Below are positions 23,684-60,440 of a stretch of 64,000 bases of DNA, piece by piece (position 1 is the first letter of the stretch; every line of letters begins with the position of its first letter). The DNA lies in assembly GCA_030390025.1 (NCBI GenBank), contig JASTWF010000335.1:186001-250000 (forward strand), given 5' to 3'. The position numbers and the translations under genes were made by a program. The notes below the pieces were generated by a model. That model saw only the letters and a list, made by a program, of their open reading frames with translations. It had not been told where the DNA came from and did no database searches. Source of the DNA: Squalus acanthias. Taxonomy: Eukaryota.

Positions 23684-23754
23684 TGGGGCCACTGGAATGT
23701 GGCGATATTTGCAGGAGAGAAGTCTGTAAACTCCCTGCTCCACAGTGAACCACT

Positions 23755-24815: not shown

Positions 24816-24874
24816 TATGATTTGTATCGGCAAACTTGTTCGGAAATTGGAGAGCGACGCGAACGGCAGATCGA

Positions 24875-26569: not shown

Positions 26570-26579
26570 CTGTTGAAAA

Positions 26580-39535: not shown

Positions 39536-39723
39536 CCGTACCCTGGTTTATTAGTCCAGTCCTCTGGATGACTGGTCCAGTCACGTAACCACTGCAATAC
39601 CCTCCTCACAAATCAAGCCACGATTTAAGGAAGTGCTTCTCGGTAGTGATTGCACCTCTCTGCTCCTGTGACAATGCAACGTGATTTAACACAGCCTTCG
39701 GGAGTGAGGCAGTCTGGACTTAC

Positions 39724-39816
39724 ATGCTTGTAGTACACCAAGCAAACCGGGAAAGTCATGAATAAATTCCACACGCAGAAACCAAGATGCACGCAGGTTA
39801 ATGTCAGTGGCGTTAT
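39724..39816 (-). CDS. MS4A-like exon, TM4 (ITPLTLTCVHLGFCVWNLFMTFPVCLVYYKH)
   Basis: Acceptor gtgttcttttacag, donor GTAAGT, 93 nt, phase 0/0. Hydrophobic helix ending in basic residues, in a unique-sequence island. Confidence 0.78.
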
Positions 39817-39904
39817 CTGTAAAAGAACACAGTTCATGCCATCACTAGCTGTTGTTTCAGCTCCAACATGAGCTGTACTTTCAAGCTCACGTTTCTGAAG
39901 ATCT

Positions 39905-41996
39905 TGTCAGCCGTGGCTCAGTGGGTAGCACTCTCATCTCTGAGTCACAAGGTCAAGGCTTCAAGTCCCACTCCAAAGACTTAAGCCCCATAATCTAGGC
40001 GGACACTCCAGTGCTGAGGGAGCATTGCACTGTCCGAGGGGCAGTACTGAGGGAGCGCAGCACTGTGGGAGGATCAGTACTGAGGGAGCGCCGCACTGTC
40101 GGAGGGACAGTACTGAGGGAGCGCTGCACTGTCGGAGGGGAAGTACTGAGGAAGCGCTGCACTGTCGGAGGGGCAGTACTGAGGGAGCTCTGCACTGTCG
40201 GAGGGGCAGTACTGAGGGAGCTCTGCACTGTCGGAGGGGCAGTACTGAGGGAGCGCTGCACTGTCGGAGGGGCAGTACTGAGGGAGCGCTGCACTGTCGG
40301 AGGGGCAGTACTGAGGGAGCTCTGCACTGTCGGAGGATCAGTACTGAGGGAGCGCCGCACTGTCGGAGGGGCAGTACTGAGGGAGCGTCGCACTGTCGGA
40401 GGGGCAGTACTGAGGGAGCGCTGCACTGTCGGAGGGTCAGTACTGAGGGAGCGCTGCACTGTCGGAGGGGCAGTACTGAGGGAGCGCTGCACTGTCGGAG
40501 GGGCAGTACTGAGGGAGCGCTGCACTGTCAGAGGGGCAGTACTGAGGGAGCGCTGCACTGTCGGAGGGGCAGTACTGAGGGAGCGCTGCACTGTCGGAGG
40601 GGCAGTACTGAGGAAGCGCTGCACTGTCGGAGGGGCTGTACTGAGGGAGCGCTGCACTGTCGGAGGGGCAGTACTGAGGGAGCGCCGCACTGTCGGAGGG
40701 GCAGTACTGAGGAAGCGCTGCACTGTGGGAGGGGCAGTACTGAGGGAGCGCTGCACTGTCGGAGGGGCAGTACTGAGGAAGCGCTGCACTGTCGGAGGAT
40801 CAGTACTGAGGGAGCGCCGCACTTTCGGAGGGGCAGTACTGAGGGAGCGCTGCACTGTCGGAGGGGCAGTGCTGAGGAAGCGCTGCACTGTCGGAGGGGC
40901 AGTACTGAGGAAGCGCTGCACTGTCGGAGGGGCAGTACTGAGGGAGTGCTGCACTGTGGGAGGGGCAGTACTGAGGGAGCGCTGCGCTGTCGGAGGGATA
41001 GTACTGAGGGAGCGCTGCACTGTCAGAGGGGCAGTACTGAGGGAGCGCTGCGCTGTCGGAGGGATAGTACTGAGGGAGCGCTGCACTGTCGGAGGGGCAG
41101 TACTGAGGGAGCGCTGCACTGTCGGAGGGGCTGTACTGAGGGAGCGCTGCACTGTCGGAGGGGCAGTACTGAGGGAGCTCTGCACTGTCGGAGGATCAGT
41201 ACTGAGGGAGCGCCGCACTGTCGGAGGGGCAGTACTGAGGGAGCGTCGCACTGTCGGAGGGGCAGAACTGAGGGAGCGCCGCACTGTCGGAGGGTCAGTA
41301 CTGAGGGAGCGCTGCACTGTCGGAGGGGCAGTACTGAGGGAGCGCTGCACTGTCAGAGGGGCAGTACTGAGGGAGCGCTGCACTGTCGGAGGGGCAGTAC
41401 TGAGGGAGCGCTGCACTGTCGGAGGGGCAGTACTGAGGAAGCGCTGCACTGTCGGAGGGGCTGTACTGAGGGAGCGCTGCACTGTCGGAGGGGCAGTACT
41501 GAGGGAGCGCCGCACTGTCGGAGGGGCAGTACTGAGGAAGCGCTGCACTGTGGGAGGGGCAGTACTGAGGGAGCGCTGCACTGTCGGAGGGGCAGTACTG
41601 AGGAAGCGCTGCACTGTCGGAGGATCAGTACTGAGGGAGCGCCGCACTTTCGGAGGGGCAGTACTGAGGGAGCGCTGCACTGTCGGAGGGGCAGTGCTGA
41701 GGAAGCGCTGCACTGTCGGAGGGGCAGTACTGAGGGATCGCTGCACTGTCAGAGGGGCAGTACTGAGGGAGCACTGCACTGTCGGAGGGGCAGTACTGAG
41801 GGAGCGCTGCACTGTGGGAGGGGCAGTACTGAGGGAGCGCTGCGCTGTCGGAGGGATAGTACTGAGGGAGCGCTGCACTGTCGGAGGGGCAGTACTGAGG
41901 GAGCGCTGCACTGTCGGAGGGGCAGTACTGAGGGAGCGCTGCACTGTCGGAGGGTCAGTACTGAGGGAGCGCTGCACTGTCGGAGGGGCAGTACTG
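39905..41996 (+). repeat. DeuSINE-like tRNA head followed by about 60 units of the 33-bp minisatellite
   Basis: A-box-like TGGCTCAGTGG at about 39914; tandem units 40010-41996. Confidence 0.93.
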
Positions 41997-42147
41997 GAGG
42001 TGCGATTAACTGTAATGGGTGAAGTAAAAGGGGAGGGGAATGGGGTTGGAAGTTTGTTCGTGAAAGGGGGGCATTGCCGCCTGCAGGTGGGGCTTGGCTG
42101 AAACCAACCTGCCTGTAACGCTCCGGGGTGGGGAGTGAATCACTTAC

Positions 42148-42261
42148 CGGGAGGAAGTCTATGATGAGCATGGAGGAGAGGCTGGTCGATATGCCGTAGA
42201 TGCAGCTGGCGATCAATGTGCTGGTGACGTGAATGCTGTTAATCACTAGCGTGGTCTTTTT
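42148..42261 (-). CDS. MS4A-like exon, TM3 (KKTTLVINSIHVTSTLIASCIYGISTSLSSMLIIDFLP)
   Basis: Acceptor tgtgtttccag, donor GTAAGT, 114 nt, phase 0/0, hydrophobic, LxxN motif as in MS4A TM3 (SLGMN). Confidence 0.85.
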
Positions 42262-42409
42262 CTGGAAACACAAAGCACCAGAACAGCATGGTCAACCTCC
42301 AAACAGGCCACATCCCCAAACAGGCCACAGCCCCTGTTGCAAGTCCTGTCTGTCGCAGGTCCTTGCCCCATCATGAGGCCACGCCCCGTTGTGAGGGGCC
42401 CGCCCCTGC

Positions 42410-44195
42410 CCCGAGGCCGCGCCCCTGGGACACCGTCCCTCCCCGAGGCCCCGCCCCTGCCTGAGGCCCCGCCCCTGAGACACCGCCCCTCCCAGAGGCC
42501 TCGCCCCTGAGACACCGTCCCTCCCCGAGGCCCCGCCCCTGAGACACTGTCCCCCCCGAGGCCCCGCCCCTGAGACACCGCCCCTCCCCGAGGCCCCGCC
42601 CCTGAGACACTGTCCCCCCCGAGGCCCCGCCCCTGAGACACTGTCCCCCCCGAGGCCCCGCCCCTGAGACACCGCCCCTCCCCGAGGCCCCGCCCCTGAG
42701 ACACCGCCACTCCCCGAGGCCCCGCCCCTGAGACACCGCCCCTCCCCGAGGCCCCGCCCCTGAGACAGTGTCCCTCCCCGAGGCCCCGCCCCTGAGACAC
42801 TGTCCCTCCCCGAGGCCCCGCCCCTGAGACAGTGTCCCTCCCCGAGGCCCCGCCCCTGAGACACTGTCCCCCCCGAGGCCCCGCCCCTGAGACACTGTCC
42901 CCCCCGAGGCCCCGCCCCTGAGACACCGCCCCTCCCCGAGGCCCCGCCCCTGAGACAGTGTCCCTCCCCGAGGCCCCGCCCCTGAGACACCGCCCCTCCC
43001 CGAGGCCCCGCCCCTGAGACACTGTCCCCCCCGAGGCCCCGCCCCTGAGACACTGTCCCCCCCCGAGGCCCCGCCCCGAGACACCGCCCCTCCCCGAGGC
43101 CCCGCCCCTGAGACACCGCCCCTCCCCGAGGCCCCGCCCCTGAGACACCGCCCCTCCCCGAGGCCCCGCCCCTGAGACACCGCCACTCCCCGAGGCCCCG
43201 CCCCTGAGACAGTGTCCCTCCCCGAGGCCCCGCCCCTGAGACACTGTCCCCCCCGAGGCCCCGCCCCTGAGACACCGCCCCTCCCCGAGGCCTCGCCCGA
43301 GACACCGACCCTCCCCGAGGCCCCGCCCCTGAGACACCGACCCTCCCCGAGGCCCCGCCCCTGAGACACTGTCCCCCCCGAGGCCCCGCCCGAGACACCG
43401 CCCCTCCCCGAGGCCCCGCCCGAGACACCGCCCCTCCCCGAGGCCCCGCCCGAGACACCGCCCCTCCCCGAGGCCCCGCCCGAGACACCGCCCCTCCCCG
43501 AGGCCCCGCCCCTGAGACACCGACCCTCCCCGAGGCCCCGCCCCTGAGCCACCGTCCCTCCCCGAGGCCCCGCCCCTGAGACAGTGTCCCTCCCCGAGGC
43601 CCCGCCCCTGAGACAGTGTCCCTCCCCGAGGCCCCGCCCCTGAGACACCGCCCCTCCCCGAGGCCCCACCCCTGAGACACCGTCCCTCCCCGAGGCCCCG
43701 CCCCTGAGACACCGTCCCTCCCCGAGGCCCCGCCCCTGAGCCACTGTCCCCCCTGAGGCCCCGCCCCTGAGACACCGACCCTCCCCGAGGCCCCGCCCCT
43801 GAGCCACCGTCCCTCCCCGAGGCCCCGCCCCTGAGACACCGCCCCTCCCCGAGGCCTCGCCCCTGCCTGAGCCCCCGCCCCCGAGCTCCCCCTCANNNNN
43901 NNNNNNNNNNNNNNNNNNNNNNNNNNNNNNNNNNNNNNNNNNNNNNNNNNNNNNNNNNNNNNNNNNNNNNNNNNNNNNNNNNNNNNNNNNNNNNNNNNNN
44001 NNNNNNNNNNNNNNNNNNNNNNNNNNNNNNNNNNNNNNNNNNNNNNNNNNNNNNNNNNNNNNNNNNNNNNNNNNNNNNNNNNNNNNNNNNNNNNNCCCCC
44101 TCACCGAGGCCCCGTCCCTCCCCGAGGCCCCGCCCCTGCCTGAGGCCACGCCCTTGCCTGAGGCCACGCCCCTCACTGAGGCCCCGCCCCTGCCC
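42410..44195 (+). repeat. GC-rich 30-32-bp minisatellite (GAGGCCCCGCCCCTGAGACACCGCCCCTCCCC)n spanning a gap
   Basis: Tandem units; related degenerate tract at about 57145-57470. Confidence 0.95.
43896..44095. other. Assembly gap (200 N)
   Basis: N run. Confidence 1.
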
Positions 44196-44406
44196 CAAGG
44201 TCCTGGGCACCCAGTTCCAAAACAAGTGGAAACATCTTCTCTCCGTCTACCCTCCCGAACCCCTTCATAATCTTAAAATACCTCGATCAGGTCACCCCCT
44301 TAGCCTTCCATTTTCTGGAGAAAAGAGCCTCCAGCCTGTTCAACCTTTCCCGATTGTTATTGTAACTTACAGCACAGATAGGAGACGCTCTCAGCTCAAT
44401 ACTTAC

Positions 44407-44463
44407 AAACTCCTCTGTGGGCGCATCAGCACAATGAACCGTGACCGCTCCTGAAATAATAGA
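44407..44463 (-). CDS. MS4A-like exon, end of TM2 (SIISGAVTVHCADAPTEEF)
   Basis: Acceptor ccctcctctag, donor GTAAGT, 57 nt, phase 0/0. The IISG motif aligns with the 19-residue CD20 segment YIISGSLLAATEKNSRKCL. Confidence 0.88.
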
Positions 44464-44489
44464 CTAGAGGAGGGTGGGTGGAAAGGGAC

Positions 44490-44905
44490 ACATGGATTAA
44501 TATCATTACTGGACTAATAATCCGGACAACGCGAGGTCAAATCCACCGCCGCAGTTTCAGAATCGGAATTAAGTTTTGGAAAAAAAAAATCGGGAAATAC
44601 AAAGTTGGTCTGGGTAAAAGTGACGATGAGGCTGTGGGATTGTCATAAAAACCCAACAGGTTCACTAGCTGTCCCTTTAGGGGAAGGGAAACTGCCAGAA
44701 ACTGCCTATATGTGATTCCAGTACCCCACTCAATGTTGGTTCACTCTAAACTGCCCCTCTGAAGTGGCCACTTCATTGCATCTATCGAAACTGCTGCCCA
44801 GTAGGTTCAAGAAGGCTCACCACCACCTTCTCAGGGGGCAACTAGGGGATGGGCAATAAATGCCAGCTTTGGCCAGCGACGCCCACATCCCGAGAATGAA
44901 TTCTC
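44490..44905 (+). mobile_element. Degenerate tRNA-derived SINE with LINE-derived tail
   Basis: Tail ...gggcaataaatgcc...gcccacatccc matches the LINE 3' end at 1870-1990 (-). Confidence 0.65.
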
Positions 44906-45084
44906 ATTCATGAGGAGGTGTCCCACAGCAACTCGATCGAAAGTGAATGAGGATTGTGGCTTCAGAGCAGCCCCAGAGAGTCAATCCAGAACTGCTGCCT
45001 CCTGAAAAATTGTACTATGTGTGTCTTCTCCTCAATCTCAAATGGGACAGGTTATCTTAAACTTACAACGAACCTTGGTTAGAC

Positions 45085-45730
45085 CACACTGGGAGTACTG
45101 TGCACAGTTCTAGTCTCCATATCACACTTGGAGTTACTGTACACAGTTCCGGTCTCCATATCACACTTGGAGTTACTGTGCACAGTTCTAGTCTCCATAT
45201 CACACTTGGAGTTACTGTGCACAGTTCTGGTCTCCATATCACACTTGGAGTTACTGTGCACAGTTCTGGTCTCCATATCACACTTGGAGTTACTGTGCAC
45301 AGTTCTGGTCTCCATATCACACTTGGAGTTACTGTGCACAGTTCTGGTCTCCATATCACACTTGGAGTTACTGTGCACAGTTCTGGTCTCCATATCACAC
45401 TTGGAGTTACTGTGCACAGTTCTGGTCTCCATATCACACTTGGAGTTACTGTGCACAGTTCTGGTCTTAATATCACACTTGGAGTTACTGTGCACAGTTC
45501 TGGTCTCCATATCACACTTGGAGTTACTGTGCACAGTTCTGGTCTCCATATCACACTTGGAGTTACTGTGCACAGTTCTGGTCTTAATATCACACTTGGA
45601 ATACTGTGCACAGTCCTGGTCTTAATATCACACTTGGAGTTACTGTGCACAGTTCTAGTCTCCATATCACACTGGGAGTACTGTGCACAGTTCTGGTCTC
45701 CATATTACACTTGGAGTATTGCGCACAGTC
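45085..45730 (+). repeat. 39-bp minisatellite derived from CR1 ORF2 (CACACTTGGAGTTACTGTGCACAGTTCTGGTCTCCATAT)n
   Basis: The unit corresponds to the HLEYCAQFWSPY-coding segment and is preceded by ttggttagaccacac. Confidence 0.92.
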
Positions 45731-45964
45731 ATCTGGTGCAAGAAGAAGGCCCACCTCCAACTTCTCAGGGGACAAGCTAGGGAATGGGGCAATAAAGGCC
45801 GGCCTTGCCAGCGACGCCTGCACATTCCCTGAGATTGATTTTAAATCATCGGGTCACGTATTTCCTCTTTAACTTTCGCTGACCCTGAACGCACCGCGAC
45901 GGATTCAAGCCCAGAGAACACGGTTGGTTGGTGGTGTCAGTGGAGGTACGTTTGACATGATTGT

Positions 45965-46302
45965 GACAGGCTGTTTCCCCCTGGCTGAAGAATCCAGAAC
46001 TAGGGGTCATGGTCTCAGGAGAAGGGGTCGGCCATTTAGGAGTGAGATGAGGAGAAATTTCTTCACTTAGAGGGTTGTGAATCTTTGGATTTGCCTCCCC
46101 CAGAGGGCTGTGGATGCTCAGTCGTTGAGTATATTCAAGACTGAGATCGATAGATTTTTTGGGACACTGAGGGATTCGAGGCATATGGGGATCGGGCGGG
46201 AAAGTGGAGTTGAGTTAGAAGATCAGCCATGATCTCAATGAATGGAAGAGCAGGCTCGAAGGGCCGAATGGCCTGCTCCTGCTCTTATTTCTTATGTTCT
46301 TA
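45965..46302 (+). mobile_element. CR1 3' end
   Basis: 3' UTR and cttatgttctta tail. Confidence 0.85.
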
Positions 46303-46544
46303 TTCCTCCTCGAACACGGGCACCACTGACCCAATTGTTTTCAATGGATGAATGTCCCATGTTTTACCAGTTAACGCCGCACAAAGCACGCTAGGGGTTG
46401 GCTCCCTGACACAGCGCACAGTAATATCTAGGCTGGCACGAGCTACTGGGGGTGGTGGAATTCGTGTTTGCCGGTATAGCGATTCGGGACACAGCAAAGC
46501 GGCAAGTTTACACCGAGGCAAGGTTGCTGCGGAAACCCTCATTG

Positions 46545-49500
46545 GTGAATGTCACCTCCAACTATTCCGGCCTCCCACCTTTCGTAAACTTGTGCTCATC
46601 CGAAACTCTGCTGCCCCGTATCCTAACTCACGCCAAGACCCGTTCACCCATCACCTCCCCCTGTGCTCACTGATCTACACTGGCTCCCAGTCTGGCAATG
46701 CCTCCACTTTAAAATTCGCATCCTTGTGTTCAAATCCCTCCATGGGGAGGGTTTAAACTGAAGTGGCAGGGGGTTGGGCACCTGAGCAGGGAGACAGAGG
46801 AAAGCGTGTCAGGAAGGGACAGAGGTGTGGAGTAAAAGGTAAAGTGTTAAAAAAGGAAAAAGCAGGAACTAACTGTCACAAAACATATTTGAAAGTTCTC
46901 TATCTGAATGCATGTAGCATTCGTAACAAAATGGACGAGTTAACGGCACAAATAACTACGTATGGGTATGATCTTGTGGCCATTACAGAAACATGGCTGC
47001 AGGGTGACAACGACTGGGAACTAAATATGCCAGGGTATTTAACAATCAGGAAGGACAGGCAGGAAGGAAGGGGAGGTGGGGTGGCTATGTTAATAAAGGA
47101 AGGAATCACTGTAATACAGAGAAATGATATTGGGTCAAAGGATCAGGATAATGAAACAGTTTGGGTGGAGATAAGGAATAATAAGGGGAAAAAAACACTA
47201 GTGGCAGTAGTATATAGGCCTCCTAATAGTTGCAACTCTGCTGGAAGAAGTATTAATCAGGAAATAGTTGGGGCATGTAATAAGGGAACAGCTATAATTA
47301 TGGAGGATCTTAACTATCATATTAACTGGACAAATCAAATTGGACAGGGCAGCCTTGAGGAAGAGTTTATTGAGTGTATTCGGGATGGATTTCTTGAGCA
47401 GGATGTAACTGATCCTACAAGGGGGCAAGCAACCTTGGACCTGGTCCTTTGTAATGAGTCAGGATTAATTAATAATGTCCTAGTTAAGGAACCCTTGGAA
47501 TGAGAGACCATAACATGGTTGAATTCCATATCCAATTAGAGGGTGAGAAGGTTGGTTCTCAAACAAGCGTACTGAGCTTGAATAAAGGAGACTATGATGG
47601 TATGAGAGCGGAATTGATTAAAGTGGACTGGGAAAATAGATTAAAGGGTAAGACGGTACATGAGCAGTGGTGTTCATTTAAGGAGTTATTTTACAACTTT
47701 CAAAAGAAATATATTCCACTGAGGAAAAAAGGGTGTAAAATAAATGACAGCCATCCGTGGCTAAGTAAAGTAATTAAGGATAGTATCCGACTAAAAACAA
47801 GGACATATAAGGTAGCCAAACTTAGTGGGAGGATAGAAGATTGGGAAGTCTTCAAAAGACAGCAAAAAGTAACTAAAGGATTGATTAAGAAAGGGAAGAT
47901 AGATTATGAAAATAAATTAGCAAAAAATATAAAAACAGATAGCAAGAGTTTCTATAGTTATATAAAAAGAAAAAGGGTGGCTAAGGCAAACGCAGGTCCC
48001 TTAGAGGATGAGACCGGGAAATTAATGGTGGGAAACATGGAGATGGCAAAAATGCTGAACAAATATTTTGTTCCAGTCTTTACGGTAGAGGACACGAACA
48101 ATATCCCAACACTGGACAAACAGGGGGCTCTAGGGGGGGAGGAGCTAAATACGATTAAAATCACTAAGGAATTGGTACTCAGTAAAATAATGGGACTCAA
48201 GGCGGATAAATCCCCTGGACCTGATGGCTTACATCCTAGGGTCTTGAGGGAAGTGGCAGTAGGGATTGTGGATGCTTTGGTAAAAATTTCCAAAATTCCC
48301 TGGACTCAGCAAAGGTCCCGGCAGATTGGAAAACTGCTAATGTAACACCCTTATTTAGAAAGGGTAGTAGGCAGAAGGCTGGAAATTATAGACCAGTTAG
48401 CCTAACATCTGTGGTGGGTAAAATTTTGGAGTCTATTATTAAGGAGACAGTAACGGAACATTTAGATAAACATAATTTAATAGGACAAAGTCAGCATGGC
48501 TTTATGAAGGGGAAGTCATGTCTGACAAATTTGCTTGAGTTCTTTGAGGACATAACGTACAGGGTGGATAAAGGGGAACCAGTGGACGTAGTGTATTTAG
48601 ACTTCCAGAAGGCATTCGACAAGGTGCCACATAAAAGATTATGGCTCAAGATAAAATATCACTGGATTGGGGGTAATATTCTGGCATGGGTGGAGGATTG
48701 GTTATCTAACAGGAAGCAGAGAGTTGGGATAAATGGTTCATTCTCGGACTGGCAACCAGTAGCCAGTGGTGTTCCGCAAGGGTCGGTGCTGGGTCCCCAA
48801 CTCTTTACAATCTATATTAACGATTTGGAGGAGGGGACCGAGTGTAACATATCAACGTTTGCAGATGATACAAAGATGGGAGGGAAAGTAGAAAGTGAGG
48901 AGGACATAAAAAACCTACAAGGGGATATAGACAGGCTGGGTGAGTGGGCGGAGATTTGGCAGATGCAATACAATATTGGAAAATGTGAGGTTATGCACTT
49001 TGGCAGGAAAAATCAGAGAGCAAGTTATTGTCTTAATGGCGAGAAACTGGAAAGTACTGCAGTACAAAGGGATCTGGGGGTCCTAGTGCAAGAAAATCAA
49101 AAAGTTAGTATACAGATGCAGCAGGTGATCAAGAAGGCCAACGGAATGTTGGCTTTTATTGCTAGGGGGATAGATTATAAAAACAGGGAGGTATTGCTGC
49201 AGTTATATAAGGTATTGGTGAGACCGCACCTGGAATACTGCATACAGTTTTGGTGTCCATACTTAAGAAAAGACATACTTGCTCTCGAGGCAGTACAAAG
49301 AAGGTTCACTCGGTTAATCCCGGGGATGAGGGGGTGGACATATGAGGAGAGGTTGAGTAGATTGGGACTCTACTCATTGGAGTTCAGAAGAATGAGAGGC
49401 GATCTTATTGAAACAAAAAGATTGTGAAGGGGCTTGATCGGGTGGATGCGGTAAGGATGTTCCCAAGGATGGGTGAAACTAGAACTAGGGGGCATAATCT

Positions 49501-50950
49501 TAGAATAAGGGGCTGCTCTTTCAAAACTGAGATGAGGAGAAACTTCTTCACTCAGAGGGTAGTAGGTCTGTGGAATTTGCTGCCCCAGGAAGCTGTGGAA
49601 GCTACATCATTAAATAGATTTAAAACAGAAATAGATAGTTTCCTAGAGGTAAAGGGAATTAGGGGTTACGGTGAGCGGGCAGGAAATTGGACATGAGGCT
49701 GAGTTCAGATCGGTCAGGGCCCTGTGGGTGGCAGAGCGGGCCAAGGGACGGAGTGGCCAGGTCCTGCTCCTACTTCTTGTGTTCTTTAGATTTGAGGTTA
49801 GGATCAGAGCAGCCATGATCTTACTGAATGGCGGAGCAGGCTCGAGGGGCCGATTGGCCTACTCCTGCTCCTATTTCTTATGTTCTTATGTCCTCCCAAT
49901 CTCTGTAACCTCCTTCAGCCCCACAACCATCCCAATCTCTGTAACCTCCTCCAGCCCCTACAACCCTCCCAATCTCTGTAACCTCCTCCAGCCCTACAAA
50001 CCTCCCTATCTCTGTAACCTCCTCCAGCCCCTACAACCCTCCCTATCTCTGTAACCTCCTCCAGCCCTACAAACCTCCCTATCTCTGTAACCTCCTCCAG
50101 CCCCTACAACCCTCCCTATCTCTGTAACCACTTCCAGCCCCTACAACCCTCCCTATCTCTGTAACATCCTCCAGCCCCTACAACCCTCCCTATCTCTGTA
50201 ACCTCCTCCAGCCCCTACAACCCTCCCTATCTCTGTAACCTCCTCCAGCCCCTACAACCCTCCCTATCTCTGTAACCTCCTCCAGCCCCTACAACCCTCC
50301 CTATCTCTGTCACCTCCTCCAGTCCCTACAACCCTCCCTATCTCTGTAACCTCCTCCAGCCCCTACAACCCTCCCTATCTCTGTAACCTCCTCCAGCCCC
50401 TACAACCCTCCCTATCTCTGTAACCTCCTCCAGCCCCACAACCCTCCCTATCTCTGTAACCTCCTCCAGCCCCTACAACCCTCCCTATCTCTGTAACCTC
50501 CTCCAGCCCTACAACCTACCCTATCTCTGTAAACTCCTCCAGCCTTACAACCCTCCCTATCTCTGTAACCTCCTTCAGCCATACAACCTTCCCTATCCCT
50601 GTAACCTCCTCCAGCCCCTACAACCCTCCCTATCTCTGTAACCTCCTCCAGCCCTACAACTCTCCCTATCTCTGTAACCTCCTCCAGCCCTACAACCCTA
50701 TCTCTGTAACCTCCTCCAGCCCTACAACCCTCCCCATCTCTGTAACCTCCTCCAGCCCTACAATCCTTCCTATCTCTGTAACCTCCTCCAGCCCTACAAC
50801 CCTCCCTATCTCTGTAACCTCCTCCGGCCCTACAACCCTCCCTATCTCTGTAACCTCCTCCAGCCCGACAACTCTCCCTATCTCTGCGACGTCCTCCAAC
50901 CCTCCCAATCTCTGTAACCGCCTCCAGCCCTACACCCCTCTGAGATCTCA
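46545..50950 (+). mobile_element. L2 fragment (46545-46745) continuing after a CR1 insertion as a 37-bp minisatellite (49890-50945)
   Basis: Frameshifted L2 ORF2-like sequence (aactctgctgcccc...atctacactggctcccag...aaatccctccatgg); array is the reverse complement of the 5020-5720 unit. Confidence 0.8.
46746..49890 (+). mobile_element. CR1 LINE, near-complete disrupted ORF2
   Basis: APE and RT motifs in ORFs 46763-49696; duplicated 3' UTR segment; tail. Confidence 0.95.
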
Positions 50951-50954
50951 CCTG

Positions 50955-51745
50955 CCCTTCTACCAAGAGTGGCCCTGGGATCTTTTATGTCCATATGAGG
51001 GGGGCAGACGGGGCCTCGGTTTAACGTCTCTTCCGAAAGCCGGCACCTCCGACAGTGCAGCGCTCCCTCAGTACTGTCCCTCCGACAGTGCAGCGCTCCC
51101 TCAGTACCGCCCCTCCGACAGTGCAGTGCTCCCTCAGTACTGCCCCTCCGACAGTGCAGCACTCCCTCAGTACTGCCCCTCCAACAGTGCAGCGCTCCCT
51201 CAGTACTGCCCCTCCGACAGTGCAGCGCTCCCTCAGTACTGCCCCTCCGACAATGCAGCACTCCCTCAATACTGCCCCTCCGACAGTGCAGCGCTCCCTC
51301 AGTACTGTCCCTCCGATAGTGCAGCGCTCCCTCAGTACTGCCCCTCTGACGGTGCAGCGCTCCCTCAGTACTGCCCCTCTGACGGTACAGCACTCCCTCA
51401 GTACTGCCCCTCCAACAGTGCAGCGCTCCCTCAGTACTGCCCCTCTGACAGTGCAGCGCTCCCTCAGTACTGCCCCTCCGACAGTGCAGCACTCCTCAGT
51501 ACTGCCCCTCCGACAGTGCAGCGCTCCCTCAGTACTGCCCCTCTGACGGTGCAGCGCTCCCTCAGTACTGCCTCTCTGACGGTGCAGCGCTCCCTCAGTA
51601 CTGCCCCTCCGACAGTGCAGCGCTCCCTCAGTACTGGCAACCGGGGAGTGTGTCTGGGATTATGGGGCTCGAGTCTCTGAAGTGTGGGGGGCTTGAACCC
51701 ACGACCTTCTGACTCAGCGGCGAGTGGGCTACACACGGAGCCAGT
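50955..51745 (-). mobile_element. DeuSINE-like SINE fragment with 33-bp array (51048-51636)
   Basis: SINE head and body flank the array. Confidence 0.85.
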
Positions 51746-51883
51746 GCTGCTACCGTAAACGCACCAGCAGAAAATGAGATGGCTTTATTTTCTCGATAAT
51801 TTGACGTCGCGCCCGAGACGTGTGCCATTCGCCAGGATTGCCCGACAACCTGAACGCTAATTTGCACAACCATTGGAACCAAC

Positions 51884-51997
51884 CATAACTCCTGTCCACC
51901 AGGGGGTGGCGGTCCTGACAGCGGACGAATACGGCACGGCGACAGCCAGGGCAACCCCTCCGGTCACTTGGACTATTCCCAGCAGGATCTGCATGAC
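51884..51997 (-). CDS. MS4A-like exon, TM1 to start of TM2 (VMQILLGIVQVTGGVALAVAVPYSSAVRTATPWWTGVM)
   Basis: Acceptor ctctgttcgcag, donor GTTGGT, 114 nt, phase 0/0. QILLG..PWWTG matches the MS4A motifs QIMIG..YPFWGG. Confidence 0.88.
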
Positions 51998-52143
51998 CTG
52001 CGAACAGAGGGAGATTGACGCTGGAATCAACTGCGGCGGACAATCGCTTTCAAACCCGCGGCTCGTAAAACTGCGAGGGCTTTTCGATGGGACTCAATGA
52101 GGTAGAAAACTGTTTCCGCTGGCGGGAGGAGTCGGTAAGCAGA

Positions 52144-52509
52144 GAACATGAGAAATAGGAGCAGGAGTCGGCCATTTGGCCCCTTCGAGCCTGCTCCGCC
52201 ATTCAACAAGATCATGGCTGATCTTCTACCTCAATTCCACTTTCCTGCACTATCCCCATATCCTTTAATTCCCTTCGTTCCCAAATATTTATCGGCCTCT
52301 GTCCTGAATGTACTCAACGACTGGGCATCCACAGCCCTCTGGGGCAGAAAATTCCAAAGATTCACAACCATTTGAGTGAAGAAACTTCTCGTCATCTCAG
52401 TCCTCAACGGCCGACCCTTTATTCTGAGACTGTGCCCCCTGTTCTAGATTCCCAGCCAGGGGAAACATTTTCTCAGCATTAACACTGTCAAGCCCCTTAA
52501 GAATTTTAC
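52144..52509 (-). mobile_element. CR1 3' end; probably resumes at about 55877-56058
   Basis: Colinear with the CR1 at 8337-9140, with a piece missing at the palindrome site. Confidence 0.75.
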
Positions 52510-52641
52510 AGGCTAGAATATCGGTACCTTAGCGCCTCCTATTAGCGCCCGGGCGGGGCACTCACGGGGCGCTAATGGCTTATCGCCCGGGCGCGCCGCC
52601 CGCGATATTCAGTCAGCATTTAGCACCGGCGCAAACACTTA

Positions 52642-52886
52642 GGGCTGGATTTTGATACTGGGGCGGGTTGGGGTCGTGTTATCCACCCGACTGCAATTTG
52701 ATGTGGGAGACTGATGCAATTTTCACCTAATTGGGCAATTGAGTTCCAGCATGTGGGAACCCATCAACCAATTAGTGGTTTCAGTCTGAAAGTCACCTCT
52801 GATGATGTCATCATTGCTGCTGCATTGCAGGTCAGAGACTGCCTGGCCTTTGCTGTGAGAGGACCTGGATGCAAAATGAGCAGCAG

Positions 52887-52921
<35 letters not shown>

Positions 52922-53380
52922 TTTTTTGCATCCAGGTCCTCTCACAGCAAAGGCCAGGCAGTCTCTGAAGACATTCAATGCAGCAGCATCAGAGGCGACT
53001 TTCAGACCTAATAATACTACTACCTTCATCACATCTCCGTTGTAATAGTGGACCTGCAGCTGATAGTCAGCTATCCACTTGTGCTCCCGCCAGGTTTCAC
53101 TGGCGTGTTTCACATCAGGCGTGCTTCACGTCAGAAAAGGGTTAAACTAGCTAAAACATTTCAAAATGGCATTACAGAGCCAATTTAGGGCTTGTTAAGG
53201 GCTTTAATGGCCTCTCGCGCCTCTTGGAGGCGGGACGGAGTCGGGAACCCCGCACACGATTTTATCAAAATTGCGTGGAGGCGGAATGGAGGCGGGATCA
53301 GGCCCGCCCGCCACTTTTCGCAATTTTAACCCCCCACACGCCTCCAAACCTGCCTCCACGGCCCTATGAAAATCCAGCCC
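52642..53380 (+). mobile_element. Harbinger-type MITE copy 3
   Basis: Perfect TTA TSD and 12-bp TIR. Confidence 0.9.
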
Positions 53381-54382
53381 TTAGCGTCTGGCCCTCTAGT
53401 GCCGCTCAGACCGTGACGTCAATGAGCGTGCAACGCCCCAGATACGAAATTCAGTCGCTTCCCCTGACTTGCTGCCTGGCGCTGATCACAACAGAAACAG
53501 CAGGCGTTGATACCTGGGATTGTCGCTCCCGGGGCGCTATTTAAAGGGAATCAGCTGCCGGGTCATTGGGAGGCCAGATTCATTGCTGGCTTGTCAAGAA
53601 AGCGTTTTGGCTGCGTTCACATTTCCTCCATCTTTGCTTTGTTGCTGCTCGAACAGTTTCTTCACTTGTATTGCTCTGAACATTTCCACCTGCTCTTTTC
53701 TCTCATTTATGGGGGGGCTTGTGCTGGCACTCCACCTTGCCCTCCGACCACTCCGTCGGAGGCAGCGGCTGCAGAGACAGAGATTGCCAAATGTGGCCAG
53801 AGGGAGGAGGAGGAGGAGGGCCGACAGACCTCGCAACAGGAGGCCTTACCCTCCCAGGGTATTCCGGGAGCCCTTCTCCTACATTCATCTCTCAGAGGAG
53901 CAGTGCAGAGAGCGTCTGTTACCTCCTGGAGGCAGCAATGGACAGCGAACTGGGAAATGTTTGCAATATCCCCTGGAAGGAGCGGCTAACGTAGAATATG
54001 AGAGCCACTGTGACCTTAACTGCCACAGAGAGAGACGTCCTGGTCCTGAGCTGAGGTCTGGCTGCTGGAGGTGGCAGAGCTCTGCGACCACCTCCTTGCT
54101 GAAGCGGAGCCTTCTAAGGCACTGCTCCTCTGAGAGATGAATGTAGGAGAAGGGCTCCCGGAATACCCTGGGAGGGTAAGGCCTCCTGTTGCGAGGTCTG
54201 TCGGCCCTCCTCCTCCTCCTCCCTCTGGCCACATTTGGCAATCTCTGTCTCTGCACCCGCTGCCTGCGACGGAGTGGCCGGAGGGCAAGGTGGAGTGCCA
54301 GCACAAGCCCCCCATAAATGAGAGAAAAGAGCAGGTGGAAATGTTCAGAGCAATACAAGTGAAGAAACTGTTAGAGCAGCAA

Positions 54383-54896
54383 CTGTACAGGGCGCTGGTG
54401 AGACCGCACCTGGAGTACTGCGTACAGTTGTGGTCCAGATGAAGGGGTTGTCTTATGAGGAAAGGTTGAGCAGGTTGGGCCTATACTCAGTGGCGTTTAG
54501 AAGAATGAGAGGTGATCTTATCGAAACATGTAAGATTCAGAGGGGGATTGACAGGGTAGATGCTGAGAGGATGTTTCCCCTAGTGGGGGTATCTAGAACT
54601 AGGGGGCATAGTTTCAGAATAAGGGGTCGCCCATTTAAGACGGAGATGAGGAGGAATTTCCTCTCTCAGAGGGTCGTGAATCTTTGGAATTCTCTACCCC
54701 GGAAAGCTGTGGAGGCTGAGTCACTGAATATATTCAAGATGGTGATTGACAGACATTTGAACTACAACGGAGTCAAGGGTTATGGGGAGAGAGCGGGAAA
54801 GTGGTGTTGAGGCCAAGATTGGATCAGCCATGATCTCATTGAATGGCGGAGCAGGGCTCGAGGGGCCGACTGGCCTACTCCTGTTTCTTATGTTCT
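54383..54896 (+). mobile_element. 5'-truncated CR1 in the right palindrome arm
   Basis: ORF 54430-54810 and tail. Confidence 0.88.
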
Positions 54897-55241
54897 GAAG
54901 CAAAGATGGAGAAAATGCCAATGCAGCCAAAACGCTATCTGACAAGCCAGCAATGAATCTGACCGCCCAATGGCCTGATAGCTGATCCCTTTAAATAGCG
55001 CCCGGGAGCGGCAATCCCATCTATCAACGCCTGCTATTTCTGTTGTGATCAGCGGCAGGTGGTAAGTCGGGGGAAGCGACTGAATTTTGCATCCGGGGCG
55101 TTGCACGCTAAATGGCGCTAAATGCCGACTGAATTTTGCAGGCGCCGTTCAAATCGGCGCACCCGGGCGATAAGCCATTAGCGCCCCGCCAGCGCTAACA
55201 GGCGGCGCTAAGGTACCGAATTTCTTGCCCCTTTACTCATT

Positions 55242-55876
55242 GGGCTGGATTTTGATACTGGGGCGGGTTGGGGTCGTGTTATCCACCCGCCTGCAATTGG
55301 ATGTGGGAGACTGATGCGAATTTCACCTAATTGGGCAATTGAGTTCCAGCATGTGGGAACCCATGACCCAATTAGTGTTTTCAGTCTGAAAGTCGCCTCT
55401 GATGATGTCATCATTGCTGCTGCATTGAAGGTCTTCAGAGACTGCCTGGCCTTTGCTGTGAGAGGACCTGCAAAATGAGCAGCAGCAGCGCTAAGTCTAC
55501 GCCCAGATATTTTTCCTCCTACTACTACTACTCTCTTGTAATAGTGGACCTGCAGCTGATAGTCAGCTATCCAAATGTGCTCCCGCCAGGTTTCACAATC
55601 GTGTTTCAGAACAGGCGTGCTTCACGTAGAACAAGGGTTAAAATCACAAAGGCCTTTCAAAATGGCATTATAGAGCCAATTTAGTGCTTGTTAAGGGCCT
55701 TAACAGCCTATCCCGCCTCTTAAAGGCGGGACGGAGTCGGGACCAGCAGACACGATTTCATGAAAATTGCGTGGAGGCGGGATGGAGGCGGACTTGTGCC
55801 CGCCCGCCAGTTTTCGCAATTTTAACCCCCCACACGCCTCCAAACCCACCTCCACGGGTCAATGAAAATCCAGCCC
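55242..55876 (+). mobile_element. Harbinger-type MITE copy 4
   Basis: Same TIRs; TSD not clean (ATT/TTA). Confidence 0.85.
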
Positions 55877-56067
55877 TTATACTCTAATTCCTTTGTAACA
55901 AAGGCCAACATACCATTTGCTTTCCTAATTGCTTGCTGTACCTGCAGGTTAAATTTCTGTGATTCATGTACAAGGACATTTCCCAGTCTCTCACCATTCA
56001 AAAAATATTCTGCTCTTTTTTGTGTTTCCTACCAAAGTGGGTAACCTCACATTTCCCCAGGACAACA

Positions 56068-57112
56068 GATTCAAGGGGGTTGGAGTATAAAAGCAGGGAA
56101 GTCCTGCTACAACTGTACAGGGTATTGGTGAGACCACACCTTGAGTACTGTGTACAGTTTTGGTCTCCTTATTTAAGGAAGGATATACTTGCATTGGAGG
56201 CAGTTCAGAGACGATTCACTCGGTTAATTCCGGAGATGAGGGGGTTGACTTATGAGGAAAGGTTGAGCAGGCTGGGCCTATACTCATTGGAGTTTAGAAG
56301 AATGAGAGGCGATCTTATCGAAACATATAAGATACCGAGGGGGGCTCGACAAGGTAGCTGCAGAGAGGATGTTTCCCCTCATGGGGGAATCTAGAACTCG
56401 GTGGCACAGTTTCAGAATAAAGGGTCGCCCTTTTAGAACTGAGATGAGGAGGAATTTCTTCTCTCAGAGGGTCGTAAATCTGTGGAATTCTCTGCCCCAG
56501 AGAGCTGTGGAGGCTGGGTCATTAAATACATTTAAGGTGGAGATAGGCAGATTTTTGCAAGATAAGGGAGTGAAGGGTTATGGGGAGCGTGCTGGGAAGT
56601 GGCTTTGAGCCCCAAGATCAGCCCTGATCTTATTGAATGGCGGAGCAGGCTCGAGGGGCCAAGTGGCCTATTCCTGCTCCTATTTCTGATGTAAGACAAT
56701 CGGTAACAGGAACCAGAGGGGAATTTTTTTTTTTTTACGCAGCGATTTGTTGTGATCTGGAATGCGCTGCCTGAAAGTGGGGTGGAAGCAGATTCAATAG
56801 GAACTTTCAAATAGAGAATTGGATAAATACTTGTAAATGGAGAAATTTGCAGGGCTATGGGGAAAGAGCAGGGGTGGGGGGGGGAGTGGGACTAATTCGA
56901 CAGCTCTTTCAAACAGCCGGCACAGGCACGATGGGCCGAATGGCCTCCTTCTGTGCTGTCTCATTCTAGACACAAAAGGCATCAAGGGGTCTGGGGAGAG
57001 AGCGGGAATATGGTATTGAGATAGAGGATCAGCCACGATCATACTGAATGGCGCAGCAGGCTCCAAGGGCCGAATGGCCTACTCCTGCTCCTATTTTTCT
57101 ATGTTTCTATAG
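56068..57112 (+). mobile_element. Three stacked CR1 3' fragments
   Basis: Repeated CR1 3' ends at about 56690, 56960 and 57110. Confidence 0.85.
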
Positions 57113-58029
57113 GTGGGCAAAGGGCATTTGGGGGTGTTGCGGAAACGAGGCCCTGCCCCTGTGGTGAGGCTCCCCCCAGGCCGCATCCCTGTGGTGAGGC
57201 CCCGCCCCTTTGCGAGACTCAGCCTCTTGTCACGAGGCCCTGCCCCGTGTCGCTAGGCCCTGCCCCGTGTCGCTAGGCCCCGCCCCTTTGCGAGACTCAG
57301 CCCCTTGTCACGGGGCCCCACCCCCTGCCACGAGGCCCCCTCCCCTTGCCTCGAGGCCCCGCCCCTGTGGTGAGGCTCCCCCCCTTTGCAAGACTCAGCC
57401 TCTTGTCACGAGGCCCCACCCCCTGCCACGAGGCCCCTCCCCTTGCCTCAAGGCCCCGCCCCTCTCACCTGAACCCCCCCTCCCTCCCATGGCTTGTGCT
57501 GGATTGGCTGATCTCGGTTTGAGGAGGTGAGGAGTCGGCCAGGGCTCCCACTCTTACAGTGGGGGGCGATTGTAACCTAACTGAACCATCTGATCGCAAT
57601 GACCGAGAGCAGGGCCGGGGGTGGAAAAGTCAGAGCCGTGGACCATCAGGTCAGTCTCCCCGACAGGCAGGTTAGGTTGGAATTGAACCGCCTCCATCAC
57701 CGGGTCCTTTCTACGCTGGAGTGTGTGGAACTGAAATATGGATCAAGGAATCGAGGGGTATGGGGAGAGGGTGGGAAAGTGGAGTCGAGGTGGAAGATCA
57801 GCCGTGATCTTGTTGAATGGCGGAGCAGGCTCGAGGGGCCGAATGGCCGACTCTTGCTCCTATTTCTGATCAGTTCTGAAACTCCAGCCCACTTCTTGAT
57901 TCAGCTCAGAGGCAGGCCCCCAGATTTCAGTGTAAGATGTAAGTGAGATTATATCACACTCGGACACAGAAGGACAATATAAAAGGAGGAACTCCCATGT
58001 CTACAGCACCTTGCTACAGGAGGTCCCAT

Positions 58030-59130
58030 AGAGCTTCACAGAAATGTGCTCACTGTTGTAATGTAGGAAAAACGTGGCAGACAATTTGCACACAGCAAGC
58101 TCCCACAAATAGCAACGTGATCAATGACCAGATCATCTGTTTTCTTTTAGTGATGATGGTTGAGGGATAAATATCGGCCCCAGGACGCCGGGGAGAACTC
58201 CTCTCTGCTCTTCTTCCAATCATGGCCGTGGAATTTTTACGTCCACCTGAGAGGGCAGACGGGCCCTTGGTTTAAAGTCTCACCAGAAAAACAATAACTC
58301 CGACAGTGCAGCGCTCCCTCAGTACTGCCCCTCCGACAGTGCAGCGCTCCCTCGTACTGACCCTCTGACAGTGCAGCGCTCCCTCAGTACTGACCCTCTG
58401 ACAGTGCAGCGCTCCCTCAGTACTGACCCTCTGACAGTGCAGCGCTCCCTCAGTACTGCCCCTCCGACAGTGCAGCGCCCCCTCAGTACTGCCCCTCCGA
58501 CAGTGCAGCGCCCCCTCAGTACTGCCCCTCCGACAGTGCAGCGCCCCCTCAGTACTGCCCCTCCGACAGTGCAGCGCCCCCTCAGTACTAACCCTCCGAC
58601 AGTGCGGCACTCCCTCAGTACCGACCCTCCGACAGTGCAGCTCTCCCTCAGTACCGACCCTCCGACAGTGCTGCGCTCCCTCAGTACCGCCCCTCCGACA
58701 GTGCAGCGCTCCCTCAGTACCGCCCCTCCGACAGTGCAGCGCTCCCTCAGTACTGCCCCTCCGACAGTGCAGCGCTCCCTCAGTACTGCCCCTCCGACAG
58801 TGCAGTGCTCCCTCAGTACTGCCCCTCCGACAGTGCAGCGCTCCCTCAGTACTGCCCCTCCGACAGTGCGGCGCTCCCTCAGTACTGCCCCTCCGACAGT
58901 GCGGCGCTCCCTCAGTACTGCCCCTCCGACAGTGCAGTGCTCCCTCAGTACTGCCCCTCCGACAGTGCTGCGCTCCCTCAGTACTGCCCCTCCGACAGTG
59001 CAGGCGCTCCCTCAGTACTGGGTAACAGGGGAGTGCGTCGGCCTGGATTACAGGGCTCGAGTCACAGGAGTGTGGGAGGCTCAGACCCACGGCCTTCTGA
59101 CTCGGAGAGAGGGAGACCGACTGCGGACGA
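58030..59130 (-). mobile_element. DeuSINE-like SINE with 33-bp array (58298-59020)
   Basis: Deu-like core at about 58045-58270; head at about 59025-59130. Confidence 0.85.
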
Positions 59131-59426
59131 AAGAGGGGCCTGTCGCCCAAATATCTCGCGGAGCCCTTCGGCAAACCTGGCTGAAATGGTGCCGGCGAAG
59201 CGAAGCCGTTAGCGAGCCAACACTTGGCGCGCTCGGCGTGGGATAGCGGGCGGGGCGAGGGGCTGTCTCTATTAACGCCCCCCGCTGAGAGGGCGGGCGG
59301 CGCGACCAGCTCTAGAGGCCAGCGAGGTTCCTGCCGGGGCTAAGCCAGCGCCCTGCGCAGCGGGCAGTATCGAGGCTGGCCCTGCCATTGTGCCAAAGTG
59401 ACGGGGAAGCGCAATGTGGTCCTTAC

Positions 59427-59522
59427 TCCAAAGAATTTCACGTGTTTGTGGAGAAATCCGTCCTCCGTCAAGCGCAGAGCGTTCCTTTCAGCCGTGCTGG
59501 GTGTGGGAGTCGCGTCCGTCAT
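59427..59522 (-). CDS. MS4A/CD20-like gene, first recognisable coding exon (MTDATPTPSTAERNALRLTEDGFLHKHVKFFG)
   Basis: Strong pyrimidine-rich acceptor ...ttccttctctgttgcag precedes exon start 59526; ATG at 59522-59520; donor GTAAGG after 59427; 96 nt, phase 0. FLHKHVKFFG matches the MS4A pre-TM1 motif FLKGEPKALG. A further 5' exon lies upstream and was not identified. Confidence 0.8.
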
Positions 59523-59554
59523 ATCACTGCAACAGAGAAGGAAAGAAATAAAGA

Positions 59555-60440
59555 AGGAAAATACGTGCATTTATATAGCGCCTTTCACGACCACCGGACG
59601 TCTCACAGCGCTTCACAGCCAATGAAGTACTTTTGGAGTGGAGTCACTGTTGTAATGTAGGAATCGCGGCAGCCAATCTGCGCACAGCAAGCTCCCACAA
59701 ACAGCAATGTCGTCGCGACCAGATAATGTGTTTCAGTTGATTGAGGGATAAATATTGCCCAGGACACTGGGGAGAACTCCCCTCCCCTGCTCTTTTTCAA
59801 AATAGTGGTCGTGGGATCTTTTACATCGACCTGAGAGGGCAGACGGGGCTCAGTTTAATGTCTCATCCGAAAGACGGCACCTCCGACAGGGCGGCGCTCC
59901 CTCAGTACTGTCCCTCCGACAGTGCGGCGCTCCCTCAGTACTGCCCCTCCGACAGTGCGGTGCTCCCTCAGTACTGCCCCAGCTGCGCTCCCTCAGTACT
60001 GCCCCTCCGACAGTGCGGCGCTCCCTCAGTACTGACCCTCCGACAGTGCTGCGCTCCCTCAGTACTGCCCCTCCGACAGTGCGGCGCTCCCTCAGTACTG
60101 CCCCTCCGACAGTGCAGCGCTCCCTCAGTACTGTCCCTCTGACAGTGCAGCGCTCCCTCAGTACTGCCCCTCCGACAGTGCAGCGCTCCCTCAGTACCGC
60201 CCCTCCGACAGTGCAGCGCTCCCTCAGTACTGCCCCTCCGACAGTGCAGCGCTCCTTCAGTACTGCCCCTCTGACAGTGCAGCGCTCCCTCAGTACTGCC
60301 CCTCCGACAGTGCAGCGCTCCCTCAGCACTGTCCCTCCGACAGTGCAGCACTCTCTCAGTACTGCACCTCCGACAGTGCAGCGGAGGCTCCCTCAGTACT
60401 GCCCCTCTGACAGTGCAGCGCTCCCTCAGTACTCCCTCAG
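59555..60440 (-). mobile_element. DeuSINE-like SINE tail and core with 33-bp array (59880-60435)
   Basis: Tail gcatttatatagcgcctttcacg; complete core. Confidence 0.87.

Follow-up and report, generated by a model that had tools for sequence, protein, structure and literature searches.

The 64,000-nt stretch of dogfish (Squalus acanthias) DNA analyzed here, referred to as the window, carries on its minus strand a gene whose coding sequence is modeled in six exons; no other host gene was found in the window. The first-pass annotation had described five of these exons, of 96, 114, 57, 114, and 93 coding nt, and their coordinates hold on the minus strand: all five are AG/GT-bounded and in phase 0, and together they give 158 codons that have no stop and encode four hydrophobic segments. 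As had also been noted, the exons are set among repeats over 20 kb; self-repeats within the window account for 82% of 39724-59526, and the exons are themselves free of self-repeat. Exon 1 (59427-59526 with its acceptor) starts at the acceptor at 59526, followed by 4 nt and an ATG at 59522-59520 that opens 32 codons; its 96-nt coding part (59522-59427) encodes the N-terminal tail up to the first transmembrane helix (TM1). Exon 2 (51884-51997, 114 nt) encodes TM1, the first outer loop, and the start of TM2, and carries QIxxG and PWWxG motifs; its donor, GTTGGT, is weak. Exon 3 (44407-44463, 57 nt) contains the IISG motif, the remainder of TM2, and the inner loop, exon 4 (42148-42261, 114 nt) contains TM3 and most of a very short second outer loop, and exon 5 (39724-39816, 93 nt) contains TM4 together with a juxtamembrane cysteine, Cys152, that is invariant in all five alignment rows. 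Exon 5 is an internal exon: it has no stop codon and ends in the splice donor GTAAGT.

The frame closes 13 kb beyond exon 5, where the coding part of the last exon (26537-26569, minus strand) consists of 10 His/Arg-rich codons and a TAG. Among AG-led minus-strand candidates compared with the tails of the orthologs described below, 26569-26537 ranks at the top, with a score of 46 versus 28 for the runner-up. With this exon the frame extends across about 33 kb and encodes 168 aa; the earlier count of 158 stop-free codons with four hydrophobic segments stands, but as a protein length it does not. Downstream lies a likely 3' UTR of about 1.6 kb (24895-26536, minus strand) that includes a GA/CT microsatellite and would end near the AATAAA at 24900-24895. 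(This is the sole AATAAA or ATTAAA on the minus strand within 26536-23700, and the non-repeated sequence around the putative UTR comprises 24812-25613 and 25994-26581.) At the other end of the gene there is probably a non-coding exon 5' of exon 1, outside the sequence found; a search of 59527-64000 for a unique exon yielded none, only retroelement and tandem-repeat frames. Two assembly gaps of 200 N each are present. The gap at 43896-44095 falls inside intron 3 and is taken to hide no coding exon because both orthologs are colinear with the dogfish protein without gaps; that at 20514-20713, between the 3' end of the gene and an orphan exon, may conceal the remainder of a paralog. Of three sequencing runs, none recorded as RNA, one of guessed type contained a fraction of 0.25 of 32 sampled words from 51750-52142 and the other two 0.00; at 39523-39905 the three runs gave only 7 repeat pieces, less than 90% alike, at 39543-39593, and exon 5 was uncovered. 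Neither comparison is evidence for or against the gene model.

Orthologs in two other sharks align with the dogfish protein over its full length, without gaps and at 61-63% identity. The protein of Heterodontus francisci (XP_067916269.1, 168 aa, named 'membrane-spanning 4-domains subfamily A member 18-like') is identical at 103 of 168 positions, and that of Chiloscyllium plagiosum (LOC122544064; XP_043538995-999, 168/169 aa, named 'uncharacterized') at 106 of 168. Both are like the dogfish protein in length, in their short loops, and in the His/Arg tail, and unlike it in the N-terminal exon, where 10 of 32 residues are identical in each case; the distance from Met1 to TM1 is equal in all. For the remaining exons, identities to Heterodontus and Chiloscyllium, respectively, are 29/38 and 27/38 (exon 2), 13/19 and 14/19 (exon 3), 24/38 and 29/38 (exon 4), 21/31 and 19/31 (exon 5), and 6/10 and 7/10 (last exon). 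The three orthologs form one clade in a six-row tree (support 99/97). The Chiloscyllium isoform X3 is without exon 4, and the longest ortholog isoform, of 204 aa, differs by its first exon only. A tblastn search with the 168-aa Heterodontus protein matched exons 1-5 in order (E 5e-17 to 0.009), which argues that the five-exon set is not a product of chance; the joining of the exons is read from splice sites and from the gene models of the orthologs, which are also only predicted. The gene had been called 'hidden' and 'lineage-specific', descriptions that do not survive the presence of RefSeq models in two shark orders; from the limited searches made, it is shark-specific at most. Literature searches under the ortholog identifiers, with 'membrane-spanning 4-domains' plus 'elasmobranch', and with a zebrafish clone name retrieved no paper, and no study of the dogfish gene was found within a literature that excluded most subscription papers.

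The sequence assigns the gene to the CD20/MS4A family, of which it is an ordinary member and not a new kind of system, and it is virtually certain, taken as one joint claim, that the gene is real and that this identity is correct. The four family motifs named in the first-pass annotation (FLxxxxKxxG, QIxxG, PxWxG, and IISG) are all present, and the motifs of the LGxxQI, PFWG, and IISG types, which are listed as conserved in MS4As (PMC11663944), occur as variants that align with CD20 over TM1-TM3. The proposed identity as an MS4A/CD20-like four-helix protein is borne out by the Pfam CD20 model (PF04103), which was applied to the orthologs and to single exons: with the cut-off at 27.9 bits, the orthologs score 41.0 and 38.7, exon 2 alone scores 22.5 bits (E = 1.3e-4), and the other single exons have no match. 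When PDB sequences are searched with an ortholog, the best matches are CD20 (E 1e-4) and then FcεRIβ (E 0.007). In addition, a profile made from three distant shark MS4A-like proteins gives the spliced model 66.3 bits, versus 11.8 for the best of 500 shuffles. The Atlas clusters neighboring the protein are either unnamed or MS4A-named CD20-domain clusters, one of them an uncharacterized fish CD20-domain family. Other searches were less productive. With exon 2, the Atlas gave no match at 0.9 or above, and a word-index search gave none among 30 candidates at E≤1; blanks from the word-index search carry little weight, since it found nothing although an ortholog exists. Primers for three dogfish MS4A genes, one per gene, had no match at up to 3 mismatches, which is a weak test. 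A phmmer search with exon 2 returned four proteins, of which P0001 and P0004 (2660 and 1161 aa, with 49 and 12 matched stretches) were set aside uninspected as repeat matches.

Four membrane helices with both termini in the cytosol are predicted from hydropathy, the basic C-terminal tail, Foldseek matches, and an AlphaFold2 model, which was built from a five-row alignment of the Heterodontus ortholog rather than from the dogfish protein (mean pLDDT 66; long helices at 21-52, 65-81, 87-122, and 128-158). The two outer loops are each predicted to have about a dozen residues or fewer. FcεRIβ chains occupy the first three ranks when this model is searched with Foldseek (TM 0.58-0.59; lowest E 0.013); sarcospan (TM 0.58) comes next, and CD20 is at rank 8 (TM 0.56). 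In VIA the top match is a uroplakin/tetraspanin chain (Z 14.3), and sarcospan (Z 12.5, rmsd 2.8, 136 aligned) and FcεRIβ (Z 12.2, rmsd 3.4, 143 aligned) are also matched. With every Foldseek E value above 0.001 and a uroplakin/tetraspanin chain leading in VIA, the fold by itself is generic. A homodimer prediction for the ortholog scored 0.00, which gives no answer either way.

The very short, cysteine-free loop between TM3 and TM4 that had been remarked upon is indeed there and is conserved: residues 110 to 134 contain no Cys in any of the three orthologs, and the loop is short in all three sharks. This feature is not unique, though. A catshark paralog (P0007) likewise has no loop cysteines, human MS4A8B and MS4A12 are without the second-loop Cys pair (PMC11663944), and the pair is common in MS4As but does not define them. 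None of the three orthologs contains a YxxL/I, ITAM, ITIM, or PPxY motif or an NxS/T glycosylation site. TM3 is rich in Ser, Thr, and Asn, and no charged pore-type residue common to the three orthologs was found in their predicted helices. The C-terminal tail is short, basic, and His-rich, with 4-5 K/R and no D/E in the three orthologs, and it adjoins the conserved juxtamembrane cysteine. A juxtamembrane cysteine, with possible lipid attachment, is a trait of the MS4A family.

Comparison with known proteins places these features in context. CD20 (MS4A1) shares the aligned QIxxG, PxWxG, and IISG motifs, but it has a large, disulfide-bonded second loop where the dogfish protein has none, the tails of the dogfish protein are much shorter, and identity is low. 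The FcεRI beta chain (MS4A2), similar by both structure and sequence match, differs in having an ITAM and a loop disulfide, while the dogfish protein has neither and ends in a 13-residue C-tail. The Scyliorhinus proteins named 'FcεRIβ-like' (P0007) and 'MS4A8-like' (P0008 and P0009) resemble it in the PF04103 domain, the PWWxG motif, and a short second loop, but they are about 30% identical and lie outside the ortholog clade; P0008 and P0009 also carry long, Pro-rich PPxY tails, unlike the dogfish protein. Dogfish MS4Ax1 has a different, canonical N-terminus of 49 residues (PMC2826416 Fig. S1). Sarcospan has the same four-helix fold and is a membrane accessory subunit. A search with the full ortholog of PDB sequences that include sarcospan gave 7 matches at E≤10, however, and sarcospan is not one of them (exon 2 alone matches it at E 3.8), so the dogfish protein is not a sarcospan ortholog. 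Sharks are the earliest-branching group with recognized MS4A genes, and orthologs of the human MS4As have been found only in mammals (PMC2826416). What is new here is the six-coding-exon dogfish gene model, a new member of a known family. Its significance is modest, and a specialist would not be surprised by it, because the existence of MS4A genes in sharks has been on record since 2010, RefSeq already contains the orthologs, and other members also have short loops without Cys. The ortholog group is nonetheless a near-minimal MS4A, with four helices, almost no outer loops, and no tyrosine motifs, and could provide a natural test of a bare MS4A bundle without the CD20 loop or the FcεRIβ ITAM.

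By analogy with better known relatives, the dogfish protein may be embedded in the membrane as an accessory subunit of other membrane proteins, a reading to which we give a probability of about 0.5. MS4A proteins act as partners of the BCR, FcεRI, Dectin-1, and GITR (PMC11663944 section 3.2). Because so little of the protein projects outside the membrane and its inner side carries no tyrosine signaling motif, it would depend on lateral partners in the manner of FcεRIβ, CD20, and MS4A4A; binding of a large ligand, or signaling alone, is less likely. Its helices would pack laterally against a partner receptor or channel, and this packing would steer the partner's assembly, trafficking, or calcium signaling, with the conserved cysteine beside the basic tail as a possible site of lipid attachment. 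A separate point runs against an accessory role: small ligands need no large loops.

Ion-channel and chemosensor roles are also listed for MS4As (PMC11663944). A small-molecule chemosensor like mouse MS4A1, MS4A4, and MS4A6, in which ligand would trigger calcium entry in olfactory or other sensory cells, would fit a family in which heterologous MS4A1 gives ligand-evoked calcium influx (PMC11026480), but it seems unlikely here: rodents are the only animals for which an olfactory MS4A role is listed as demonstrated (PMC7776563 table 1), the tiny outer loops are conserved across three sharks, and within the window there was no sign of an array of full, diverging copies. Channel roles are reported as well (PMC11663944 section 3.1), and a self-sufficient cation channel, of the sort suggested for CD20, MS4A12, and TMEM176A/B and perhaps located in internal membranes, would suit the Ser/Thr/Asn-rich TM3, the lack of a glycosylation site, and the uncharacterized fish family among the nearest Atlas clusters. 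This too is doubtful, given the lack of a common charged pore-type residue and TM1-TM2 motifs that, compared by eye in a published alignment, resemble the MS4A rows more than the TMEM176 rows. An immune-cell signaling subunit in the FcεRIβ mold, to which the leading Foldseek matches and the automatic naming of the catshark relative would point, is quite improbable, as the three orthologs have no ITAM or YxxL/I and three other dogfish MS4A genes are reported not to be blood-restricted (PMC2826416). The immune or chemosensory relevance suggested in the first-pass annotation gained no evidence.

Weak donors in exons 1-3 (1.1, -0.3, and 1.7 with a simple weight matrix) and the gap in intron 3 would suit a pseudogene, or fragments that only happen to be joined across the gap; this is scarcely credible for six ordered exons whose frame is intact and aligns with two orthologs over 168 residues free of indels. 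It is also highly improbable that the frame, which is open from the exon 1 acceptor to the ATG, runs upstream into a pyrin-domain exon to make a pyrin-MS4A fusion: the equivalent Met is the start in both orthologs, which have 168-169 aa, the 204-aa isoform changes only the first exon, and 59527-64000 showed retroelement and tandem-repeat frames but no pyrin domain. Downstream of the six-exon gene, a different question is raised by a second, orphan copy of the TM4 exon (16100-16225, minus strand, 126 nt) that lies outside the 168-aa frame and has a strong acceptor and donor. It ranks first of 30 minus-strand exon candidates in non-repeated DNA, with the strongest splice sites, and is the fourth best MS4A-profile match in the window. 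From the acceptor it has 35 open codons, then a TGA at 16120-16118, and 49 of 93 nt are identical to exon 5 without gaps. A five-helix reading in which exons 1-5 continue into the exon at 16225 (193 aa) was rejected because the orthologs follow exon 5 with the 10-residue tail, which is found at 26569. The orphan exon hints at a tandem duplication, and a search of the window for paralogous exons 1-4 near it found none. Its lack of partners, its strand, phase 0, homology to exon 5, and splice sites would accord with a gene having two endings, in which exon 4 could be followed by exon 5 plus the last exon, or instead by the orphan exon, as would the strongest conservation at second codon positions (13, 22, and 14 of 31 for the three positions). 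Such splicing is nevertheless unlikely: the orphan exon lies beyond the likely polyadenylation signal, the first exons of a paralog could be concealed in the intervening 200-N gap, this ending is absent from all four isoform proteins listed for the orthologous genes of the two sharks, and ortholog-query searches returned no such form. If it did occur, one MS4A gene would swap TM4 and tail between 168-aa and 162-aa forms, the duplicated TM4 exon would have been kept hydrophobic, and the swap would alter the membrane partner that the protein packs against. Against the last exon, the orphan exon is identical at 14 of 33 positions, and a shuffle test of the orphan-exon comparisons gave p = 0.007.

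The window holds a real, if predicted, shark gene of the MS4A/CD20 family, intact, conserved and one exon longer than the first-pass annotation had it. All five coding exons reported there are present on the minus strand (59522-59427, 51997-51884, 44463-44407, 42261-42148 and 39816-39724), each bounded by AG and GT and in phase 0, and they join into 158 stop-free codons. This frame had been taken as the protein, but it is not complete: exon 5 lacks a stop codon and ends at a GTAAGT donor, and the frame is therefore open at its 3' end. In both shark orthologs, Heterodontus francisci XP_067916269.1 and Chiloscyllium plagiosum LOC122544064, the exon 5 counterpart is followed by a short His/Arg tail. 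When every AG-led minus-strand position was scored against these two tails, 26569 was the clear top at 46 (runner-up, 28), giving as best tail match a sixth exon whose coding part runs from 26569 to a TAG at 26539-26537 (minus strand). The resulting frame of 168 amino acids aligns without gaps to the Heterodontus and Chiloscyllium orthologs, with 103/168 and 106/168 residues identical. Its introns (7429, 7420, 2145, 2331 and 13154 nt, the third counted with a 200-N gap that lies within it) are all GT-AG; the donors of exons 1-3 are weak on a simple matrix. By self-comparison within the window, exons 1-5 each lie in non-repeated sequence, and 82% of their span is repeated. Exon 3, which is 57 nt long and carries the IISG motif, presumably fits the usual MS4A exon plan, and the single AATAAA on this strand past the stop codon (26536-23700), at 24900, likely marks the 3' end of the gene.

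A phmmer search with exon 2 against 1.84 billion representatives returned four proteins. Two were set aside as long repeat matches; the others are the shark proteins XP_067916269.1 ('MS4A18-like', 168 aa) and LOC122544064. Both records are computed gene models, and judged by sequence the gene is already represented in other sharks by RefSeq models. With the Heterodontus protein as query, 3 of 66 candidates matched (itself and two Chiloscyllium isoforms); a profile search matched 6 of 3536 candidates, the newcomers being three MS4A-like proteins of a catshark with about 30% identity in the alignment. The closest proteins found are from sharks throughout; no orthologs outside sharks appeared in these searches, which is weak evidence of absence because the searches were word-limited. 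Exon 2 by itself matches the Pfam CD20 model (E=1.3e-4), the other exons scanned singly do not, and both orthologs, standing in for the spliced protein, pass PF04103 (41.0 and 38.7 bits; cut-off 27.9). Against a profile of the three catshark proteins alone, the spliced model scores 66.3 bits, versus a maximum of 11.8 in 500 shuffles. A six-row tree, built without mammalian MS4A or TMEM176, places the two orthologs and the window gene in one clade (support 99/97).

The Heterodontus ortholog was folded in place of the window protein. From an alignment of 5 rows, AlphaFold2 gave a four-helix bundle (mean pLDDT 66, pTM 0.57). A sequence search of solved structures with the ortholog hit CD20 at E 1e-4 and FcεRIβ at E 0.007; Foldseek of the model ranks FcεRIβ 1-3 (TM 0.58-0.59, best E 0.013), sarcospan next and CD20 eighth, with no match at E<=0.001. 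In a wide structural search the top match was a uroplakin chain (Z 14.3), ahead of sarcospan (Z 12.5) and FcεRIβ (Z 12.2); taken by itself, the fold is therefore generic.

In their predicted topology, the three orthologs (window gene included) share an N-tail of 30 residues, a first outer loop of ~12 residues and a Cys-free second one of ~6-11. TM4 closes with a conserved Cys, and the C-tail has 13 residues, of which 4-5 are basic and none acidic. None of the three contains YxxL/I, an ITIM, PPxY or an N-glycosylation site. The short Cys-free TM3-TM4 loop that the first-pass annotation had singled out is real and conserved, but it is not singular. The catshark 'FcεRIβ-like' protein P0007 has no cysteine in its second loop either, and PMC11663944 names human MS4A8B and MS4A12 as without the Cys pair. 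Because hardly any of the protein projects from the membrane and its cytosolic side carries no signalling motif, its likeliest role would be that of a lateral accessory subunit, a reading to which we give a probability of about one half; PMC11663944 documents such roles for CD20 (alongside the BCR), FcεRIβ (within FcεRI) and MS4A4A (alongside Dectin-1). The protein might instead act as a channel or a chemosensor, since both are reported for the family, the former in the same review and the latter there and in PMC11026480; PMC7776563 lists the olfactory role as shown in rodents only.

The tails of the window gene (26569-26540, minus strand) and Chiloscyllium carry RxR at residue 161; that of Heterodontus does not. 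Arginine-based ER-retention signals of this type occur in other membrane subunits. Among the annotated isoforms of Chiloscyllium LOC122544064 (proteins P0003 and P0006), X1 and X3 use an alternative first exon, and X3, which lacks the TM3 exon, would yield a three-helix form.

Shark MS4A genes were described in 2010, when three dogfish genes were found expressed beyond blood cells (PMC2826416); the full-length dogfish gene described there differs at its N-terminus and does not look like an ortholog of the window gene. A literature search found no studies of the latter, which supplements of shark genome papers or bioRxiv could list.

A duplicate of the TM4-coding exon 5 lies at 16225-16100 (minus strand), past the likely polyA site and a 200-N gap. 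Starting at the acceptor, this hydrophobic orphan exon aligns colinearly with exon 5 (49/93 nt identical), second codon positions being most conserved (22/31 versus 13 and 14), and across the junction it is weakly similar to the last exon (14/33 nt, p=0.007), as if it resembled exon 5 and tail minus their intron. Its splice sites are strong; codon 36 is a TGA, and the donor follows 18 nt later. No partnering exons 1-4 were found in the window. A five-helix reading, with this exon as continuation of the gene, was ruled out, as the orthologs show exon 5 and then the tail found at 26569. Among the ortholog isoforms retrieved, none ends with a counterpart of the orphan exon, so an alternative ending of the gene is less likely than either a relic or an adjacent paralog that the gap conceals. 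Downstream, the unique stretches 4497-4739 and 5786-5951 (minus strand) have acceptor- and donor-like sites and are possible non-coding exons following the orphan-exon donor.

The surroundings are repeat-rich vertebrate DNA (74% of the window self-repeated), with tandem arrays of 32-43 nt units and fragments that we take, from their frames, to be LINE-type. Three arrays (20714-23688, 40009-41996 and 42437-43865) of 32-33 nt units in 45-93 copies contain long stop-free frames, which are not likely to have coding meaning; two of the three sit at or beside assembly gaps. Intron 1 holds two adjacent near-copies of one frame (53486-54370, minus strand), presumably a Harbinger-type transposase fragment. 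The top-scoring splice-site pair in non-repeated DNA (17.4) bounds 62 nt with one open basic frame at 10822-10883 (plus strand), within the AT-rich unique stretch 10609-11111, and may belong to a transposon-like element or to an exon of an opposite-strand transcript.
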